From Candidatus Nomurabacteria bacterium RIFCSPHIGHO2_02_FULL_42_19 (GTDB lineage Bacteria > Patescibacteriota > Minisyncoccia > Phycocordibacterales > UBA9973), in contig MFUG01000013.1 of NCBI GenBank assembly GCA_001785615.1, positions 11,006 to 75,005 of the forward strand: 64,000 nucleotides of DNA, in the 5' to 3' direction. The notes under the pieces are model-generated. The model made no database searches, was not told the origin of the DNA, and was given only the letters and a program-made list of their open reading frames with translations. Made by a program: the position numbers and the translations under genes. Shown piece by piece: positions 431-39,337 of this stretch. Each line of letters opens with the position of its first letter. The stretch's first letter is position 1.

Positions 431-1900
431 TTAGTCCTTGCGCAAAAATAACGGCTGGTCGGGTTTTTTGTTTTCTTTTATCAGTTTTTTAAGCAACTCA
501 TTAGTGCTAGGCATTATCGGATTTAGCATTCTAGCTATTTTATACAAGCGGATAACAGCGGAAGAAATTAATTCTTTCCCCTTTTTTTCGTCTACTTTTA
601 TAACCTTAAACGGTTCCGTTTCTTGAATAAATTTATCAAGTTCACTGATTTCTTTCCAAGTAAAATCCACTGCTTTATTAATTTCAAATTTATCCAAGTA
701 ATCTTTCCATTCTTGCGGGATAGAATGCTCTGGAATTTCTGGACACTTGTTTAAATACTTCTCGGATAAAGTTAAAATACGACTTACCAAATTCCCCAAC
801 CCATTTGCCAGATTCGCATTGTATGCCTCTTTAAACCTTTCCATAGTAAAAGGACTGTCTTCAAATGAAGAAATCTCACGCAAAAGAAAATAACGCAATG
901 CGTCTGTGCCATATTCTTTTACAACTTCTATAGGATCTATGCCATTCCCTAGGGATTTAGACATTTTTATTCCGCCCTCGCCGGTGATAAAACCGTGATA
1001 AACAATTGTGTCTGTAGTTGGCATTCCAACCGACATCAACATTCCCTGCCACATTACGGATTGGAATTTAACCATGTCTTTCCCAGCTATCTGAATTTTT
1101 TCTCCATTGACCCAGAACTTTTCAAAAAGACCCTCCCCTCCTGCCAGAGGAGGGGAGAGGGGATGGTGGGAGTCGGGCCAGCCCAAGGTGGAAAGATAAT
1201 TTACAAAAGCGCCAAACCATACATACATTACTTGGGCATCGTCCCCTGGTATCGGCACCCCCCAGGAAAAGCGTTTCTTGTCGCGGGAAATAGAAAAGTC
1301 CTCCATGCCTTCGGATACGAAATCAATTGCTTCACGCCGACGCCACTCTGGAAAAATTGCTTTTTCTTTTGCGAGATAATCTAAAAGCTGCTTTCTGTAA
1401 TTTGCTAATCTAAAAAAATAATTTTCTTCCTCCACCATCTCGGGCTTTTTATCCGGATGAAGTGAGCATTTTCCTTCCATTAGATCTTTTTCAGTAATAA
1501 ATTTTTCACATCCTACGCAATAAAGCCCTCTGTATTTTTTTTTATAAATATCACCCTTAGCGTCACAAAGACGCCAAAATTCCTGCGCTGCTTTCACGTG
1601 TTCTCCGCTTGTGGTTCTGATAAAATTATCGTAGGAGAGATTTAACACATCTTTCAGGCCCAGAAACTTCTCTGCATAAAAATCCACATAACTTTGCACA
1701 TCCTTGTCTTCCTTTAAACTTCCCTCCCAGATTTTTTGACCATATTCGTCTGTGCCAGTACTGAAAAATACATCGCGTCCTACTAGCCGCTGATATCGTG
1801 CCATCGCATCCGCTTGCACAAGCTCAAGCGCAAAGCCAATATGAGGATCCGCATTCACATATGGAATCGTGGTCGTAATGTAAAAACTATTTTTTTTCAT
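431..1900 (-). CDS. metG: Methionyl-tRNA synthetase
   Basis: Class I aaRS with the P-Y-V-N-A-D-P-H-I-G-F HIGH-type motif, KMSKS (KMSKSLGN) and a Zn knuckle (CVGCEKF). Confidence 0.9.
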   Translation of the reverse strand: MKKNSFYITTTIPYVNADPHIGFALELVQADAMARYQRLVGRDVFFSTGTDEYGQKIWEGSLKEDKDVQSYVDFYAEKFLGLKDVLNLSYDNFIRTTSGEHVKAAQEFWRLCDAKGDIYKKKYRGLYCVGCEKFITEKDLMEGKCSLHPDKKPEMVEEENYFFRLANYRKQLLDYLAKEKAIFPEWRRREAIDFVSEGMEDFSISRDKKRFSWGVPIPGDDAQVMYVWFGAFVNYLSTLGWPDSHHPLSPPLAGGEGLFEKFWVNGEKIQIAGKDMVKFQSVMWQGMLMSVGMPTTDTIVYHGFITGEGGIKMSKSLGNGIDPIEVVKEYGTDALRYFLLREISSFEDSPFTMERFKEAYNANLANGLGNLVSRILTLSEKYLNKCPEIPEHSIPQEWKDYLDKFEINKAVDFTWKEISELDKFIQETEPFKVIKVDEKKGKELISSAVIRLYKIARMLNPIMPSTNELLKKLIKENKKPDQPLFLRKD

Positions 1901-9201: not shown

Positions 9202-9241
9202 AACATAACACTACATCGCGACCGCGATAGATTGTTATGTT
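9202..9241. repeat. Family-3 palindromic repeat, copy a (aacataacactacatcgcgaccgcgatagattgttatgtt)
   Basis: Imperfect palindrome with outer arms aacataaca/tgttatgtt and core tcgcgaccgcga. Overlaps the stop of ORF 9235..9708. Shares the core and outer arms with 9718-9753. Confidence 0.75.
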
Positions 9242-9708
9242 GCTTTTCTAACCCTAAACACACGGATGTTTTCATAAATACCAAGAACTCTCAACCTCTC
9301 ACCAAATTCTTTTGGTAGAGGACCATGACCAAGCCATAAGCTTTTATGAATCATCTCAAAATCCCAATATTTTATCTGATTGCGGAGCCAGTCCCTAGTT
9401 TTTTTCTTGGTTTCAGGTATATCAAAAGATAGCAACACTCTTTCGGTCTTGCCTGGATAAATATTTTTCATCACCGAGTTATTCTTTACGGCAAGTTTAG
9501 CTAAATCCTCTCGACAAATATGAATGGTCTCGCCGTCTGTCTCAACAACCCCCTGCTTTCCTAACCGATAAATGCGTTGCCGAAAAGCTTCCGGAGTTAG
9601 GTTTTTTTGCCTTGCTCGCATTCTTTTCCACAACATCTTCCTGTATATTTTTGTTGAACGAGAAGACAGTAAAAATGCTATTAAGTGATCTACTATCGTC
9701 GGTTGCAT
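9235..9708 (-). CDS. PaaX-like/Cas2-like-motif small protein, paralog (subfamily B)
   Basis: C-terminal motif VLLSFDIPETKKKTRDWLRNQIKYWDFEMIHKSLWLG. Closest to 27139..27636 (shared FDIPE-K-R-WLR-I-KS-W-G-PLP-EF). Confidence 0.5.
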   Translation of the reverse strand: MQPTIVDHLIAFLLSSRSTKIYRKMLWKRMRARQKNLTPEAFRQRIYRLGKQGVVETDGETIHICREDLAKLAVKNNSVMKNIYPGKTERVLLSFDIPETKKKTRDWLRNQIKYWDFEMIHKSLWLGHGPLPKEFGERLRVLGIYENIRVFRVRKAT

Positions 9709-10409: not shown

Positions 10410-11009
10410 TCACAGAATTTCTTCCAGGGCCTTTAGTAAGTCCTCAGGGGTGCTGACAACCTTTGCAGGGTTAGCTTTTTGTAAATTTTCTTCTTCATGA
10501 AATCCCCAGGTAACGGCGATGGACTTGATCCCGCATTCCCGTGCTTCGGCAATATCGCCTGTTGTGTCTGTAATAAAAACAGCATTTTCTGATGTAATTT
10601 TATATTTTTCCAAAAGCATTTTGTTTTTCACAACTTTGCTGGTGTGAATATCTCCTCCTAATATATCGGAAAAACATTCGAGGACATTCGCTTGTTTTAA
10701 AATTTTTGTTATGAGTGCTGACGGCGTCGCCGAAACAATGGCAAGTTTGTAATCTTTGTTTAGTTCAAAAATGATGTCTTGTAATGGTTGTGGTACCTTA
10801 AACTCCCGTGACTGTTCTTCGTATCGTTCGAAAAATTTAGGATGTTGTTTTACTTTAGGATTATTTTTTAATGAATTATAAATATTCCCATTAAAAAGAG
10901 AGCGGAACATGTGAAGAGACAAGTTTTCATTGGTCTCTTTGCTAATTTCATAACTCACTATGAATGTATCCACCAAGACCCCATCAAAATCAAAAAGAAT
11001 CAATTTCAT
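10410..11009 (-). CDS. HAD-superfamily hydrolase/phosphatase
   Basis: N-terminal motif I LILFDFDGVLVDT (DxDG). Confidence 0.75.
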   Translation of the reverse strand: MKLILFDFDGVLVDTFIVSYEISKETNENLSLHMFRSLFNGNIYNSLKNNPKVKQHPKFFERYEEQSREFKVPQPLQDIIFELNKDYKLAIVSATPSALITKILKQANVLECFSDILGGDIHTSKVVKNKMLLEKYKITSENAVFITDTTGDIAEARECGIKSIAVTWGFHEEENLQKANPAKVVSTPEDLLKALEEIL

Positions 11010-14000
11010 ACTTTATCAATCTTTACTTTGAAAACCAACTCCCCTATTTTCACCTCTTCGCTATTAGTGTCTTTAAATTCTATTTTGGATGCCAGTGCAA
11101 TTTTTTTAATATCTTGCTCAAATTTTTGGATTAAACTCTTTCCCGCGTCGTCGGTTTCAACAGAAAGGGTGATCATGTCGCTCGGCGTCAGCCCCATTTT
11201 CTTCCGCATATCTTGAACAGCGCGCAAAAGCTCGCGATAACTTCCCTCTTGCTTTAATTCATGAGTTAACTCAGTAATTAATTTAAATTCCTTTCCGGCT
11301 GAAACTTCTTTGACGTTCAATTCATCTTTTATTAGCTCAATATACTCTGTGGTTAAACTTAAATTCGCCAACTCTAACTTAGCAAGCGGCTGACGAACTT
11401 GGATTTTCGCTTTCTGCCTGGCTTCTAACCCTAAAGAAACTATTTTTCTAACCTCTGCCATGTTTTCTAAAACTTTTGGCCGAAGGTCCCGAGCAGAAAC
11501 GAGGGGCCACTCGGCCAAATGCACACTGCCTACATCCTTATCTGTTTTTAGTCGGCGCCAAATATCTTCTGCCGCAAACGGAGTAAACGGGGCCATAATT
11601 TTCGCTAGAGTTTTCAAAATAAAATACAAAGTTGCTTTCGCGTCCCCGTCTCCCTCTTTAATCCGCTCGCGGGAGCGGCGAAGGTACCAAGTAGAAAGGT
11701 CCCCTATAAAATCCTTTATCGCGCGGGTCGGTTCAAGCAATTTATAATTGTCTAAGCTGTCAGTAGTGAGTTTTACCAGCTCATTTAGTCGAGCTATGAT
11801 CCATTGATCAAGGACATTGGTAGGCTTTAGGCGGTAGGCACTAGGCTCTAGCGAAACATTCCGATATAGTTCATAGAAAGCCAACACATTGTAGAGCAGG
11901 CCGAAAACCTGCTGATGAAGAAGAGCCACCGTTTTTTCATCAAAATTTTTGGACTCACCCGGCTGATTGACCGAATACATCCATAAGCGCAGTGTATCCA
12001 CACCGTATTTATCTATCATTTCCCACGGGTTCACAATATTTCCCAGGGATTTGGACATTTTTTTACCATTGGCATCGAGTAAATGCCCGAGGCAAATCAC
12101 ATTTTTATACGCTTTTCCCCGGCCCATCAGCACCCCCACTGCGTGCAGGGTATAAAACCATCCACGGGTCTGGTCAATAGCTTCCGAAATAAAATCCGCC
12201 GGGTAGCCCTTGCCGTCTACCCATTTTTTGTTTTCAAAGGGATAATGATCTTGAGCGAAAGGCATGCAGCCGGAATCCAGCCACACATCCATTACCTCTT
12301 TAGTTCTTACCGCACTGCCGCCACAGTCGCACACCAGATGAACCCCATCAATATACGGACGATGCAAGTCAAGTTCATAATTTTCATTGTGCGGCAATGG
12401 GATAAAATCTAATTTTTTCATTTCTCCCGTATGAAGCATTTCTTTTTCTTTAAAATTATTATCTGAAGATCCAGCGGATATTTTTTGTAAAACCCATAAA
12501 GGGTTGCCGTGAGAAACTATAAGAATATTTTTCCCTTGATATTTATTATCAATCTCATATATAAATTCCGCCATTCTTCTCCTAACAATATCCTCACTGC
12601 CTTCGTTTGATTCATGAAGCCGATCATCAACTAAAACAGCGTCGGGAGCAAGGCCTAGTTCATTTTTTACTACCTCTGCGGTCTCTTTGGTTCTTAAAAA
12701 TGGCGAGGAAAATATCGGGTTTATATCTTTTAATTTCTTAGATGTAGATATTGCTTCCTTTTTACCTTTTTCAGTCAAGTGATTGTCCGGATCACCCTTT
12801 GGGTCCAACAAGTGTTTGGCGTTATTAATTGCTTCTCCATGCCGCATAATAAAATATTTATTGCCGGATTTTTTAGTTTTACTTTGGAGATCTTCCAAGC
12901 CCCCGACGACATGCCTCTTCTCACATTTTTCGCAAGTCCAGACGGGCAGAGGCGTGCCCCAGTATCGCTCGCGGGATATTGCCCAGTCCTTGATCTCCCG
13001 TAGCCATTCGCCGAAACGTCCCTCGCGGGTATGCGCCGGCTCCCAGTTTATATTTTTATTTTCATTAATTAGTTGTTTCTTAATTTTTGGATCCGACATT
13101 TTGATATACCAAGAGTCCCGCGCATAGTATATGAGCGCTGTCTTACAGCGCCAGCAGTGCGGATATGAGTGTTGATAGTTTTCTTTATCGAAAAATAAAT
13201 TTTTATCTGTTAAATATTTAATAATGTCCACATCCAAAGTTGGCTTTCCACTGTCGTCTTTTTCTCTCACAAATCTTCCTCCCAAGAACCCTGTGCCTTC
13301 TATAAACTTACCTTCGGGGTCTACCAGATGGTGTTTCGGTAGTCCTACTTTCGTACCAAGCTCAAAATCGTCTTGCCCATACATCACCGCGGTGTGCACG
13401 ATACCCGTACCGTCTTCAGTATTTACAAAGTCCGCCGCGTAAACCCGAAAGGCCTTATCTGTTGACTCCCCTTTTTTCTCTAGTTGTTCTTTTAAGTATG
13501 GGAAAAGTGGTTCGTACTCTAGCCCAACCAAATCTTTGCCTTTCATTTCGGTTATAACTTCAGGATTTTCACCAAAAACAGGAAGTCGCGCCTTTGCTAG
13601 AATATATATTTCGTCCCCGCTTTTGACTTTCACATAATCAACCTTCTCCCCCACCGCAAGCGCGACATTCCCTGGCAAAGTCCAAGAGGTGGTCGTCCAG
13701 GCCAAGAAATACATATTGGCCGAGTCTGTATGCTTTTGTGAAGGAGTGGCTGAGCGTAGTGAGGAACCGAGCGACTGAGGAAAAGCATCAGGCGAGGCCA
13801 GCTTGAACTTTACATAAACCGAAAGATCTTTCACTTCTTCATACCCCTGTGCGAGCTCGTGTGAAGAAAGCGCGGTGCCGCATCTCGGGCACCAAGGTAC
13901 CACCTTGTAATCCTTGTAAAGAAGTTTCTGATCATCTACTTTTTTTACAACATTCCAAACCGATTCAATATAATCATTGTGATATGTGGCATACGCATTT

Positions 14001-14437
14001 TCTTGATCTACCCAATATCCGACACGTTCGGTAAATTTATTCCAGGCCTCAAGATATTCCCAGACGCTCTCCCTGCATTCCTGATTAAATTTAGCTACAC
14101 CGTATTCCTCAATCGCTTTTTTTGAATTAAGACCTAATTTCTTTTCTACCTGGATTTCTACTGGAAGTCCATGCGTGTCCCAACCGCCCTTGCGGCGTAC
14201 ATGGTACCCCTGCATCGTTTTGTAGCGAGGAATCGCATCTTTGAAGACACGCGCTTCCAAGTGGTGAAGCGCTGGTTTAGCATTGGCCGTCGGCGGACCT
14301 TCGTAAAAGATAAATTCTTTTTTACCTTCGGATTCTTTTAATGTCTTTTCAAAAATTTTATTCTCGCGCCAAAATTCCAAGATGCGCTCTTCCCGAAGAG
14401 CCGCATCTGATTTTTTATTCTTTTCGGTTTCAGCCAT
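11006..14437 (-). CDS. ileS: Isoleucyl-tRNA synthetase (type 2, archaeal/eukaryote-like) with an inserted histidine-phosphatase (PGAM-like) domain
   Basis: Editing-domain motif WTTTSWTLPGN, KMSKS (KKMSKSLGN), LHRPYID...DVWLDSG. A ~125-aa insert at aa ~527-650 reads KYFIMRHGEAINN...LTEKGKKEA...SSPFLRTKETA...ILIVSHGNPL, i.e. the RHGE...SHG pattern of the histidine phosphatase superfamily. HIGH motif is non-canonical (PALHHLEA). Confidence 0.85.
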   Translation of the reverse strand: MAETEKNKKSDAALREERILEFWRENKIFEKTLKESEGKKEFIFYEGPPTANAKPALHHLEARVFKDAIPRYKTMQGYHVRRKGGWDTHGLPVEIQVEKKLGLNSKKAIEEYGVAKFNQECRESVWEYLEAWNKFTERVGYWVDQENAYATYHNDYIESVWNVVKKVDDQKLLYKDYKVVPWCPRCGTALSSHELAQGYEEVKDLSVYVKFKLASPDAFPQSLGSSLRSATPSQKHTDSANMYFLAWTTTSWTLPGNVALAVGEKVDYVKVKSGDEIYILAKARLPVFGENPEVITEMKGKDLVGLEYEPLFPYLKEQLEKKGESTDKAFRVYAADFVNTEDGTGIVHTAVMYGQDDFELGTKVGLPKHHLVDPEGKFIEGTGFLGGRFVREKDDSGKPTLDVDIIKYLTDKNLFFDKENYQHSYPHCWRCKTALIYYARDSWYIKMSDPKIKKQLINENKNINWEPAHTREGRFGEWLREIKDWAISRERYWGTPLPVWTCEKCEKRHVVGGLEDLQSKTKKSGNKYFIMRHGEAINNAKHLLDPKGDPDNHLTEKGKKEAISTSKKLKDINPIFSSPFLRTKETAEVVKNELGLAPDAVLVDDRLHESNEGSEDIVRRRMAEFIYEIDNKYQGKNILIVSHGNPLWVLQKISAGSSDNNFKEKEMLHTGEMKKLDFIPLPHNENYELDLHRPYIDGVHLVCDCGGSAVRTKEVMDVWLDSGCMPFAQDHYPFENKKWVDGKGYPADFISEAIDQTRGWFYTLHAVGVLMGRGKAYKNVICLGHLLDANGKKMSKSLGNIVNPWEMIDKYGVDTLRLWMYSVNQPGESKNFDEKTVALLHQQVFGLLYNVLAFYELYRNVSLEPSAYRLKPTNVLDQWIIARLNELVKLTTDSLDNYKLLEPTRAIKDFIGDLSTWYLRRSRERIKEGDGDAKATLYFILKTLAKIMAPFTPFAAEDIWRRLKTDKDVGSVHLAEWPLVSARDLRPKVLENMAEVRKIVSLGLEARQKAKIQVRQPLAKLELANLSLTTEYIELIKDELNVKEVSAGKEFKLITELTHELKQEGSYRELLRAVQDMRKKMGLTPSDMITLSVETDDAGKSLIQKFEQDIKKIALASKIEFKDTNSEEVKIGELVFKVKIDKV

Positions 14438-14491
14438 TATTGGCTGATTTTAGCACAAAATTTATGGTTTTACACCTTGCTAGATAAAATT

Positions 14492-14524
14492 AAAAACACA
14501 CCGTACTTACAGAGTAAGACGGTG
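14492..14524 (-). terminator. Rho-independent terminator for the GC-rich ORF
   Basis: On the minus strand: caccgtcttactctgtaagtacggtg followed by tgttttt, ~60 nt downstream of the stop of ORF 14585..15001. Confidence 0.6.
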
Positions 14525-14584
14525 CATTGATTCGTGAGCCCCCGCGCCGCTAGATATTGCACGGGGACTCCTGCGACCTGCCAA

Positions 14585-15001
14585 CTACGAGGCCACGGTT
14601 TCTTTCCGTGCCGGCAGGTATTGACCGATCACGAAGTCAACGCGGCTCATCAGCCGTGCCCTGTTCTCCTCGTAGGCCTTGAGGGAAGCCGCGATTTCCT
14701 CTCCGACCATCTGGGTCTCAAGTTCAGCCCAGATTCGGCCATACTCCTCGAGCGCGCCGACGAAACTCGCCACCACCAGCTCAATGCCGTCCTCTTTCAG
14801 TTCCGACAAACCCCATATTAAGAAGTATCGGCTGTTTGGGGAAAGACGACTGGAGATGAGCTTCTCGACAAGGTGTTCGTGGATAGCTCTGCGGGCATGA
14901 CTTTTATACAAAGAGCCGCCACCCCGGTACGCAAGCTCGATGATGTGGGCGTCTTCGTAATAGTGACGCACATTGATGTACGCCCCTGAAGAGGTAGGCA
15001 C
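14585..15001 (-). CDS. Hypothetical protein in a compositionally anomalous (GC-rich) island. Possibly a gene remnant
   Basis: Only a GTG start is available and there is no in-frame ATG. Local GC is clearly higher than flanks, with long ORFs in several frames. No recognisable motif. Confidence 0.3.
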   Translation of the reverse strand: MPTSSGAYINVRHYYEDAHIIELAYRGGGSLYKSHARRAIHEHLVEKLISSRLSPNSRYFLIWGLSELKEDGIELVVASFVGALEEYGRIWAELETQMVGEEIAASLKAYEENRARLMSRVDFVIGQYLPARKETVAS

Positions 15002-15079
15002 GGTCTGGCCTGTGTACCTGCCATCCTTGATGACCCACGTAAACGGGAGACCGCGGTCTTCAAAACATCTTTGTCAAAA

Positions 15080-17788: not shown

Positions 17789-18352
17789 ATGAGTCAAAAT
17801 ATTAAACGGCTAGGGACTACGCAACGAAAGATTCTTCTGCTTCTTCTGGCAGGGCTCGCGTTGGGTTTAACCAGATCGCCGAAAAAGCATTGGTGGATTT
17901 TAAAACAGATACCGAAAGAATGGAAAAAGATAAACCGACAAGCCCTGGAGAGGGCGATTAATTCTCTTTATGTTTCTCATCTAGTGCAGAAGGAACAACA
18001 CAGAGATGGCACAACCACTTTTGTCTTGAGTGAAAATGGTAAACGAAGGGCCTTGCGATTTAATATCGATAAGATGGAAATCAAAAGGCCGGGTAAGTGG
18101 GATAATAAATGGCGAGTGGTGATGTTTGATATTCCAGAAAAATTAAGGAGGTTGCGAGATTCTTTACGTTTACATTTCCGTGAAATAGGTTTAATTGAAC
18201 TCCAAAAATCAGTTTTTGTATATCCTTATCCATGCAGTAAGGAAATCGAGTTTATCTTGGAATTCTACAATACAAGAAGGCATGTGCGTTTTCTCTTGGT
18301 CGAAAAGATAGATAATCAGCTTCATTTAATGAAAAAATTTAATCTGTGTTAG
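17789..18352 (+). CDS. PaaX-like small protein (wHTH + Cas2/VapD-like motif), paralog (subfamily A)
   Basis: C-terminal motif WRVVMFDIPEKLRRLRDSLRLHFREIGLIELQKSVFVYPY. Aligns with 4368..4970 (RP-KWD-KWR...FD...Q-SV...PY-C). Confidence 0.5.
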   Translation: MSQNIKRLGTTQRKILLLLLAGLALGLTRSPKKHWWILKQIPKEWKKINRQALERAINSLYVSHLVQKEQHRDGTTTFVLSENGKRRALRFNIDKMEIKRPGKWDNKWRVVMFDIPEKLRRLRDSLRLHFREIGLIELQKSVFVYPYPCSKEIEFILEFYNTRRHVRFLLVEKIDNQLHLMKKFNLC

Positions 18353-37318: not shown

Positions 37319-39337
37319 ATGGATAAATTTTTATTGTTTATACTTGTCAGTTCAGTCGTATCAATACTTTACGGGTTGGTCGTGGCTAAAAAGATATTAA
37401 AAAAGAGCGCTGGTAACGAAAAAATGCAAGGAATTGCCAAAGCCATAGAAGAAGGAGCTACGGCTTATTTGAATAGGCAATACAAAACTATCGGCGTCAT
37501 TGCCGTTATATTATTTTTTATCATGGGTCTCGTTCCACAGTTGGGCTGGACGACGGCATTCGGGTTTATCTTCGGCGCGATTCTTTCGGCTTTAGCTGGG
37601 TACATTGGGATGAATGTTTCGGTACGAGCAAATGTGCGCACCGCGGAAGCCGCTAAATTAGGTCTGAAAGAATCCTTAGCCATCGCTTTTGACGGTGGCA
37701 CAGTTACCGGACTTCTAGTCGTCGGGCTTTCTTTGCTTGGAGTTACTTTGTCTTTTATGGTAACTGGCGACGTAAAAGCGCTTATCGGTTTTGGTTTTGG
37801 TGGCTCCTTAATATCAATCTTTGCCCGTTTGGGCGGAGGCATTTTTACTAAAGCCGCGGACGTAGGGGCGGATCTGGTGGGAAAATTAGAAGCCGGCATA
37901 CCGGAAGACGATCCGAGAAATGCCGCCTTTATCGCGGACAATGTGGGCGACAATGTGGGCGACTGCGCTGGTATGGCGGCGGATCTTTTTGAGACCTACG
38001 CGGTTACTTCTATCGCCACAATGCTTTTGGGCTCGCTTATTTTCCCCGACTCACCGAATGCGCTTCTCTTCCCTTTGGCCCTCGGTGGGATGGCGGCTCT
38101 CGCCTCAATTGTGGGCACTTTTTTCGTACGCTTAGGAAAATCTGCCCGCGCAGGCGGATCACCAAATATAATGAATGCTTTATACAAGGGTTTGATTGCG
38201 ACAGGAGTGATTTCGGCAGTCGCTTTTTACCCAATTACAAAAATGCTAATGGGAGACAATGGACTTTATGATGCGCTAAATCTTTTCTACGCAACCTTGG
38301 TCGGACTGGTGGTCACTGGGTTCTTGGTGGTCATTACCGAATATTTTACCGCTTCCAAATATGCCCCTGTTCGATCCATTGCCAATGCGTCGATTTCCGG
38401 ACATGGTACCAATATAATTCAGGGACTTGCGATTTCAATGAAATCAACTGCTTTACCGGTAATAGTTATCACACTCGGAATTCTTTTCTCCTACAATTTT
38501 GCCGGCCTTTATGGTATTGCGGTCGCGGCTATGTCCATGCTTTCCATGGCGGGCATTATCATAGCCATTGATGCTTATGGACCAATTACTGATAACGCCG
38601 GAGGTATTGCGGAAACAGCTGGGCTATCCCCGGAAGTAAGGACTATTACCGACGCTCTTGATGCGGTCGGCAACACCACCAAAGCAGTCACCAAGGGCTA
38701 TGCCATCGGCTCAGCCGGCCTTGCTGCTCTTGTTTTATTTGCTTCTTATACCCAAGAATTTGCAAACGCTGGTCTAAATCTTAATTTCACTTTAGAAGAT
38801 CCAAAGCTTATTGCGGGACTTTTCTTGGGCGGACTTCTGCCTTATTATTTCGGAGCGCTTTGTATGGAAGCAGTGGGAAAAACCGCGGGTAAAGTAGTCG
38901 AAGAGGTACGCAGACAATTTAGAGAAATAAAAGGAATCATGGACGGTAGTGGAAAACCAGAGTACGGAAAATGTGTGGACATTGTGACTAGTAGCGCCAT
39001 CAAGCAGATGATCGTGCCAGCCCTTATCCCAATTGTCGCACCAATTTTAGTTGGTTTTATCTTAGGACCAGTTGCTCTCGGCGGAATGTTGGTGGGCTCA
39101 ATCATCACCGGACTTTTCGTGGCAATATCCATGACCTCTGGCGGCGGGGCCTGGGACAACGCGAAGAAATACATTGAAGAAGGAAACCACGGCGGTAAAG
39201 GAGGAAATGCTCATAAGGCAGCTATCACCGGAGACACCGTAGGCGACCCTTATAAAGATACGGCCGGACCCGCTATCAACCCGATGATTAAAGTACTCAA
39301 TATTGTGGCCTTGCTTCTGGTGGCTTTCTTGGTATAA
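37319..39337 (+). CDS. hppA: Membrane-bound proton/sodium-translocating pyrophosphatase
   Basis: Signature [21 protein letters not shown]. ~16 TM helices, 672 aa. Confidence 0.9.

Follow-up and report, generated by a model that had tools for sequence, protein, structure and literature searches.

A histidine phosphatase domain nested in the type-2 isoleucyl-tRNA synthetase of Parcubacteria

Aminoacyl-tRNA synthetases often acquire lineage-specific appendages, usually RNA-binding or editing modules. An isoleucyl-tRNA synthetase (IleRS) lineage with an additional enzyme domain is represented, by name only, in the NCBIfam family NF040702 ('isoleucine--tRNA ligase, N-acetyltransferase domain-containing'), but that domain is a GNAT and not a histidine phosphatase, and the protein described here scores 327 against the family cut-off of 1999. 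Its closest described relatives are the type-2 synthetases (IleRS2) of D. radiodurans and P. megaterium (8C8U-8C9D), which are the same type of enzyme with the same domain order and can be aligned to it over their full length (E ~1e-239). At one position, where known IleRS2 of the G/AXHH type have about 5 residues, the protein has a phosphatase domain of 165 aa.

The closest known counterparts of this domain, PhoE/YhfR of Geobacillus stearothermophilus (1EBB, 1H2E), PspA (4IJ5), HFP (9MMH) and CobC, are free-standing, capped proteins of ~200 aa. The insert differs from this group in being nested in another enzyme and, in the subclade studied here, in having 29 fewer cap residues; sequence identity is 22-26%. 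Histidine phosphatase domains are also found as parts of larger proteins. The TFIIIC subunit tau55 (2YN0, 6YJ6) is a eukaryotic transcription factor subunit with no close sequence relation to the insert. In proteins of the Rv2228c type (PRK07238) the domain is likewise fused to a nucleic-acid enzyme, but end to end and to a different partner; their model matches the insert at 44-92 bits, below its equivalog cut-off of 326.

In the literature searched, which included recent papers on IleRS evolution, we found no description of an IleRS/histidine phosphatase fusion. A 2026 survey of 96,219 IleRS sequences from GTDB and EukProt, which used IleRS-domain HMMs only, does not mention the insert. No description was known when the fusion was first noticed. 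The protein is not a singleton, however: the arrangement is clade-wide, and public databases have contained it since 2016. These sequences carry automatic Pfam annotation, and automated naming lists them as 'hypothetical protein' or else as 'class I tRNA ligase family protein'. What distinguishes this case is that an essential synthetase has, within its catalytic body, an unrelated enzyme whose active site is intact, and this across a very large uncultivated clade. It raises the question whether a phosphatase step operates in the translation of minimal cells, or whether IleRS is merely the carrier of a housekeeping enzyme.

The host synthetase and its signature motif

We analysed a 64-kb stretch of contig MFUG01000013.1 from Candidatus Nomurabacteria, referred to here as the window. 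The ileS gene is a single unbroken ORF of 1143 aa on the minus strand (Table 1). Its product scores 879.3 bits against the IleRS equivalog profile TIGR00392 (NCBIfam; cut-off 621.4). Pfam recognizes tRNA-synt_1 (PF00133) as two blocks, the anticodon-binding domain (PF08264) and, at the C-terminus, DUF5915 (PF19302), the last corresponding to a type-2 C-terminus without the terminal zinc-binding domain. The best relatives in the PDB (phmmer, all chains) are P. megaterium IleRS2 (8C8U/V/W and 8C9D; E=4e-239 for 8C8W) and T. thermophilus IleRS (1ILE). The editing region matches 1WK8, a structure of the IleRS editing domain in isolation; the translation contains the motif WTTTSWTLPGN, and the editing domain, KMSKS and both zinc sites are all present. 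Since no element of aminoacylation or editing is missing, the product is most likely the housekeeping enzyme. Within the window there is no second ileS. The acquired mupirocin-resistance synthetases MupA and MupB were considered and rejected, as the protein scores 765 and 762 bits against the NCBIfam exception models, whose cut-off is 1900.

GenBank entry OGI75962.1 (UniRef100_A0A1F6W2C6), which comes from a Nomurabacteria MAG, has the identical protein sequence and is publicly annotated as 'hypothetical protein' or 'Isoleucine--tRNA ligase'. The same sequence occurs on five contigs of up to 142 kb, which rules out an assembly chimera as the source of the fusion.

Table 1. Features of the ileS gene and its product, in window coordinates (aa, residue numbers of the product).
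Feature	Position	Strand	Basis
ileS, type-2 isoleucyl-tRNA synthetase	11006..14437	-	TIGR00392, PF00133, PF08264, PF19302
Class I signature motif, non-canonical G/AXHH type, A56-L-H-H59	14261..14272	-	translation
CP1 editing domain, ~aa 198-427	13157..13846	-	1WK8 match, E=3.5e-27; first zinc site (WCPRC / CWRC) on the flanks
Second zinc knuckle, first half, C502-E-K-C505	12923..12934	-	Cys retained in 109/120 close homologues
Inserted segment, aa 520-684: histidine phosphatase domain with junctions KKSGNKY and F-x-P-L-P-H-N	12386..12880	-	
R532-H533-G534, phosphate-binding Arg and nucleophilic His	12836..12844	-	R and H 162/162; G 160/162
R582, second phosphate-binding Arg (SPFLRTKET)	12692..12694	-	invariant, 162/162
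E609, general acid	12611..12613	-	E 158/162, D 3, gap 1
H643, second catalytic His (IVSHG)	12509..12511	-	invariant, 162/162
Second zinc knuckle, second half, C703-D-C705	12323..12331	-	conserved in 108-109/120 close homologues
KMSKS loop, aa 793-797	12047..12061	-	translation; invariant in 72-sequence alignment

Two signature motifs define class I synthetases, HIGH or its G/AXHH variant and KMSKS, and the ileS product has both. The first had been singled out as atypical; the sequence PALHH is indeed present at aa 55, but it belongs to the already published G/AXHH type of IleRS2, in which the first and third positions of the motif are swapped (bioRxiv 10.1101/2023.01.31.526100). The swap raises the Ki for mupirocin up to 1000-fold at little catalytic cost, resulting in hyper-resistance; ALHH occurs naturally in Deinococcus radiodurans IleRS2, and the variant has been validated experimentally in other IleRS2 (bioRxiv 10.1101/2023.01.31.526100). 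The D. radiodurans enzyme therefore shares its motif with the window protein. Among the homologues we counted 104 GxHH, 8 AxHH, 23 VxHT and 23 HxGH, and the forms found within the clade are GIHH, ALHH, VLHT, HYGH and HYGS/HAGS. The natural G/AXHH forms, together with the further-diverged VxHT and HxGS, widen the known range of class I signature motifs.

A histidine phosphatase domain in the second zinc knuckle

The loop of the second zinc knuckle harbours a complete branch-1 histidine phosphatase domain. The presence of such a PGAM-like domain within the synthetase had been proposed from the sequence, and the profile search bears it out: PF00300 (His_Phos_1) matches in two stretches from aa 529 with 70.1 bits (E=2.6e-19), well over its gathering cut-off of 21.7, and the match is flanked on both sides by the PF00133 blocks. 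Capped relatives score 95-133 bits. The limits of the insert were taken from the alignment with 8C8W, in which residues 240-519 and 685-1065 of the protein correspond to 215-476 and 482-869, so that residues 519 and 685 pair with 476 and 482. The insert thus stands in place of ~5 residues of the P. megaterium enzyme; these ~160 extra residues are not a normal connective peptide. It follows the editing domain and splits the second Cys4 zinc knuckle into its CxxC and CxC halves. The hairpin that hosts it is called CP2 or CP3, depending on the nomenclature. All motifs originally quoted are found, namely WTCEKCEK (aa 500), RHGE (532), SPFLRTKET (578), IVSHG (641), DLHRPYID (690) and DVWLDSG. The interval first given, 12488..12870, covers the catalytic part (aa 523-650) and falls short of the whole insertion, which extends over aa 520-684.

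The insert was modelled alone with AlphaFold2 (40-sequence alignment), giving a confident prediction (pLDDT 91, pTM 0.89) with the alpha/beta fold of the superfamily. In a Foldseek search of the PDB the model retrieved solely proteins of the histidine phosphatase superfamily (PspA 4IJ6, PhoE 1H2E, TIGAR, CobC, RosC), and the nearest solved protein by sequence is PhoE (E=7e-8). The full-length model (72-sequence alignment) has a mean pLDDT of 73 and a pTM of 0.51, with the Rossmann core below pLDDT 50. In NCBIfam the insert reaches no equivalog cut-off. The best model is dPGM_arch (NF038349), at 59.9 bits for the window protein and up to 112 for relatives against a cut-off of 225; SixA (TIGR00249) gives 36.8 against 74.5, the cut-off of 81.7 for dPGM (TIGR01258) is not reached, and scores stay far below the cut-offs for CobC, PspA, GpmB and the Rv2228c type. 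As no curated subfamily takes it in, the insert is, judged by these profiles, an unnamed histidine phosphatase subfamily.

The catalytic core is complete: RHG, the second Arg, the general-acid Glu and the second His are all in the insert. Their conservation (Table 1) was assessed in 162 full-length homologues, comprising 120 close ones (62-71% identity) plus 42 that represent clusters at 50% identity. The other near-invariant positions of the insert are family motifs (LT..G, S..R, T586, N539, GES, R621) and the two junction motifs KKSGNKY and FxPLPHN, which are conserved above the insert average; beyond these, the homologue alignments reveal no additional conserved surface positions. The insert evolves faster than the IleRS body, with a mean pairwise identity of 38% compared with 61%. 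The two sets of identities are correlated (Spearman 0.56), consistent with vertical inheritance of both together. Rapid change at the surface combined with a fixed active site would be expected of an active enzyme domain and not of a decayed spacer. The suggestion that the insert might be degenerate is therefore unlikely, given the conservation of the catalytic residues; the active site, which a structure prediction had been suggested to check, looks intact.

The cap differs in length among the homologues. In small-molecule histidine phosphatases it builds the substrate pocket. In most homologues a stretch of 42 residues separates the general-acid Glu from R621, with the phosphatase-type motif E-x3-G-x-F-E-G-K...Y...F...P-G-G-E-S, and a full PhoE-type cap is present in 148 of 163 family members. 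In the window protein and 11 close relatives, E609 to R621 spans 13 aa, owing to a 29-aa deletion directly after E609. A second, unrelated group of three has 18 residues between Glu and Arg. All capless members keep RHG, R, E and H, and their inserts are 37-69% identical to that of the window protein. Two capless groups with intact catalytic residues imply at least two losses of the cap under continued selection on the catalytic core. By analogy with SixA, cap loss would leave an open site, and such a site would suit a macromolecular substrate.

Distribution and genomic context

The nested arrangement is inherited across Parcubacteria/Paceibacteria and is the standard IleRS of the whole clade. 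A survey of related synthetases, suggested with the first observation of the insert, shows it throughout: PF00300 is carried by all of the best 120 listed homologues of the full protein, the named ones being mostly Candidatus Nomurabacteria, Pacebacteria/Paceibacterota and Minisyncoccia, with one labelled Burkholderiales. A HMMER search of 1.84 billion cluster representatives with the insert and short flanks yielded at least 393 clusters (50% identity) with E<1e-10. Nearly all of the top 150 are IleRS-sized proteins or their fragments, with a few free-standing phosphatases of 140-205 aa. At least 520 GTDB species genomes, with one genome scanned per species, encode a relative of the insert. 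Where record titles are informative they name Nomura-, Zambryski-, Adler- and Kaiserbacteria and Parcubacteria/Paceibacterota; many other records carry generic labels only (uncultured Candidatus Saccharibacteria, Patescibacteria group, bacterium), and a few short contigs labelled Nitrosotenuis or Spirochaetia are probably mis-binned. The insertion site is identical in two IleRS2 subtypes, PPTAN...G/AxHH and PPFATG...HYGH, which makes the insertion old compared with the shifts that the signature motif has undergone. The insert can thus serve as a clade marker for Parcubacteria IleRS.

At all 80 loci examined the match lies inside ileS, usually in the order argS-ileS-recO-DUF11; argS, recO and the DUF11 protein are the conserved neighbours. 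In the window, a gene for a HAD phosphatase overlaps the ileS stop codon. It was dropped as an operon clue because it is found at only 2 of the 80 loci. The top match among apparently stand-alone forms (P0002, 186 aa) was also rejected as evidence that the domain exists on its own: it resembled a split gene, but ileS on its contig is broken up into at least four ORFs, and we take it as a frameshifted assembly. The neighbourhoods of the nearest free-standing relatives (P0008, P0010) are uninformative. PADLOC found no defence system, PHROGs gave no match, and Rfam has no match within the window.

Some relatives carry further domains. The phosphatase is present in some of them in 2-4 tandem, active-looking copies, each with RHG and His. 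Others have additional domains at different surface sites: an HD domain that, by our interpretation, adjoins the C-terminal domain on the anticodon side and is thus distant from the acceptor end, and a P-loop kinase-like insert (AAA_18/AAA_33). Searched against the sequences of the PDB, the HD and P-loop inserts gave insignificant matches only.

Possible functions of the nested phosphatase

The insert is probably a working phosphomonoesterase. In the expected mechanism, R532, R582 and H643 would hold the phosphate, H533 would attack it to form a phospho-histidine intermediate, and E609 would protonate the leaving group. Our best guess, a tentative one, is a phosphatase that acts independently of aminoacylation, with broad, PhoE-like specificity and IleRS as its carrier only. 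Its substrates would be small phosphomonoesters such as sugar, acid or nucleotide phosphates. IleRS would provide an always-expressed carrier, and once the free-standing copy had been lost the insert could no longer be removed. Fused phosphatases have precedents in the bifunctional PFK2/FBPase2 enzymes and in M. tuberculosis Rv2228c, an RNase H/acid-phosphatase fusion of the PRK07238 family.

Several observations favour autonomy. The closest structures are metabolite phosphatases, and no insert surface is conserved beyond the family and junction motifs. The net charge of about -2 is not that of an RNA binder. Tandem copies that look active occur in some relatives, and other phosphate- or nucleotide-handling domains occupy other surface sites of IleRS, which suggests that the synthetase of this clade is a tolerant carrier of extra domains. 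Finally, the window also encodes MetRS and ArgRS, and neither has an insert. Against this reading we count that the insert reaches none of the NCBIfam equivalog cut-offs, the best model being dPGM_arch with 60-112 bits where 225 are needed.

Other features favour coupling to tRNA or protein substrates: a single site in the catalytic body is retained throughout, and repeated cap loss opens the active site as in SixA. That a single insertion site has been strictly kept across deep divergence could reflect functional coupling to IleRS. One form of coupling, possible if rather unlikely, is tRNA 3'-end healing, in which the domain would remove a 2'/3'-phosphate (or a pyrophosphate or cyclic-phosphate remnant) from A76 of tRNA-Ile, which would then be charged; it would amount to built-in protection against toxins and RNases that block the CCA end. 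To our knowledge no branch-1 histidine phosphatase acts on RNA ends, which counts against the proposal. The location in the connective-peptide region of the catalytic body agrees with healing, as do the open site of the capless subclade with its retained core and the sporadic relatives with HD and P-loop kinase-like domains, enzyme types that take part in the repair of RNA ends. The insert, however, is slightly acidic and has no additional conserved surface; the HD domain of the relatives is at the anticodon-side C-terminus, away from the acceptor end; and PADLOC detects no defence system. In favour of healing, toxSAS toxins are known to block aminoacylation by pyrophosphorylating the CCA ends of tRNAs (bioRxiv 10.1101/2021.04.30.441581), which makes a phosphorylated 3' end a real physiological lesion. 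The more specific proposal that the nested phosphatase acts in cis, stripping a 2'/3'-(pyro)phosphate block, the product of toxSAS-type toxins or RNA cleavage, from tRNA-Ile's CCA end right before charging, we consider unlikely. If true, it would be the first aminoacyl-tRNA synthetase with built-in tRNA-end repair and the first enzyme of the histidine phosphatase superfamily acting on RNA ends.

Nested domains can couple allosterically to their host, and the insert might be non-hydrolytic, a phospho-ligand sensor or structural buttress that tunes IleRS; the above-average conservation of both junctions would agree with such a role. A general-acid Glu that is near-invariant (158/162) alongside the nucleophilic His points to a need for catalysis and not for binding, and active-looking copies have been duplicated in tandem, which makes this explanation distinctly improbable. 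We give still less credence to a SixA- or PGAM5-like protein phosphatase that dephosphorylates IleRS or a partner, for example to reverse the inactivation of synthetases by HipA-type kinases. An open site would suit such a substrate, but the score for SixA is about half of what that family requires, the full PhoE-type cap is kept by those 148 members, the closest structures are metabolite phosphatases, and no kinase is conserved nearby at the 80 loci.

Most doubtful is the view that the insert is the cell's cofactor-dependent phosphoglycerate mutase or supplies some other single step that is missing, for instance as phosphoserine phosphatase, and would fill a gap reported for glycolysis in Parcubacteria: scores are half of the equivalog cut-off, the ERHYG-type signature of mutases is replaced in the consensus by the phosphatase-type E-x3-G-x-F-E-G-K, and in the window protein, which lacks the whole cap, retention of a bisphosphate intermediate is implausible. 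This is so even though archaeal-type dPGM (NF038349) is the best NCBIfam model, with up to 112 bits for capped relatives, and several shallow Parcubacteria clades are reported to lack PGM (PMC7304191). For metabolic reconstructions a caution follows, in that a 'PGAM-family' match in such genomes can belong to ileS. A role as pyrophosphatase is less likely as well, since the window encodes a membrane H+-PPase that makes it unnecessary.

Signature motif variants in the clade

The class I signature motif of these type-2 isoleucyl-tRNA synthetases (IleRS) is variable. V-L-H-T stands in its place in 23 of the 162 homologue sequences, and further loci carry an H-x-G-S form, H-[YASTH]-G-S. The fourth histidine, conserved in both the canonical and the published variant motifs, is missing from V-L-H-T and H-[YASTH]-G-S. 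The range in this clade exceeds the published G/AXHH swap (bioRxiv 10.1101/2023.01.31.526100).

Tandem phosphatase copies and other domains

Some IleRS relatives contain two to four tandem His_Phos copies. In the homologues P0261 and P0333 the RHG motif is present in every copy and the second histidine in most. An additional copy in P0333 begins close to the C-terminal end; both sequences may be cut off by contig ends. In some relatives the phosphatase is joined by an HD phosphohydrolase domain adjoining the C-terminal DUF5915 domain, and one relative carries a P-loop kinase-like insert within the latter half of its Rossmann fold. Sequence search of the PDB gave no significant relative for either the HD domain or the P-loop insert.

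Composition of the insert and an apparently free-standing copy

At third codon positions, the GC content of the insert (window 12386-12880) is 0.30, compared with 0.45 for the remainder of 11006-14437. Of 72 related loci, 56 likewise show the lower value in the insert, and the mean difference is 0.036 (Wilcoxon p=2e-6). These AT-rich third positions are consistent with weaker constraint on the insert.

One copy of the insert, P0002 at locus L081 (ENA contig_54002), appears free-standing. The ileS gene that holds it is broken into four or more ORFs, and a gene for Cas1 and an IS605-type ORF lie beside it. Because this ileS is split, P0002 is most likely the product of a frameshifted assembly or a pseudogene, and we rejected it as evidence that a free-standing form exists.

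Surroundings of ileS

The ileS stop codon shares 4 bp (ATGA) with the start of a HAD_2-family phosphatase gene, and therefore two unrelated phosphatase folds are encoded at the locus. This neighbour is retained at just 2 of 80 related loci. On the other side, the argS-ileS spacer has a GC content of 53%, with peaks of 61–64%, against a genome value of about 41%. Pfam, PHROGs and Rfam returned no match for it, and nucleotide similarity is absent among 86 related loci. The spacer could represent a small gene of foreign origin or, alternatively, an unrecognised RNA. Two small proteins, with no matches beyond PaaX_M, flank the argS-ileS region.

Features of the window and of related sequences
Feature	Location	Strand	Detail
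MetRS	window 431-1900	-	short, 489 aa, no extra domain
PaaX_M (Cas2-like) small protein	window 9235-9708	-	
HAD_2-family phosphatase	window 10410-11009	-	
argS-ileS spacer	window 14438-15079		642 bp
ORF inside spacer	window 14585..15001	-	138 aa
PaaX_M (Cas2-like) small protein	window 17789-18352	+	
Membrane H+-translocating pyrophosphatase	window 37319-39337	+	PF03030, 891 bits
VLHT variant	homologues P0112, P0114, P0115 and others; loci L001, L005		
H-x-G-S variant	loci L003, L008, L011, L026, L035, L043, L048, L057		
Tandem His_Phos copies	P0261, aa 427-1161		
HD domain	P0132, P0186, P0199, P0214, P0218, about aa 1108-1207		PF01966/PF13023
P-loop kinase-like insert	P0359, aa 746-869		AAA_18/AAA_33
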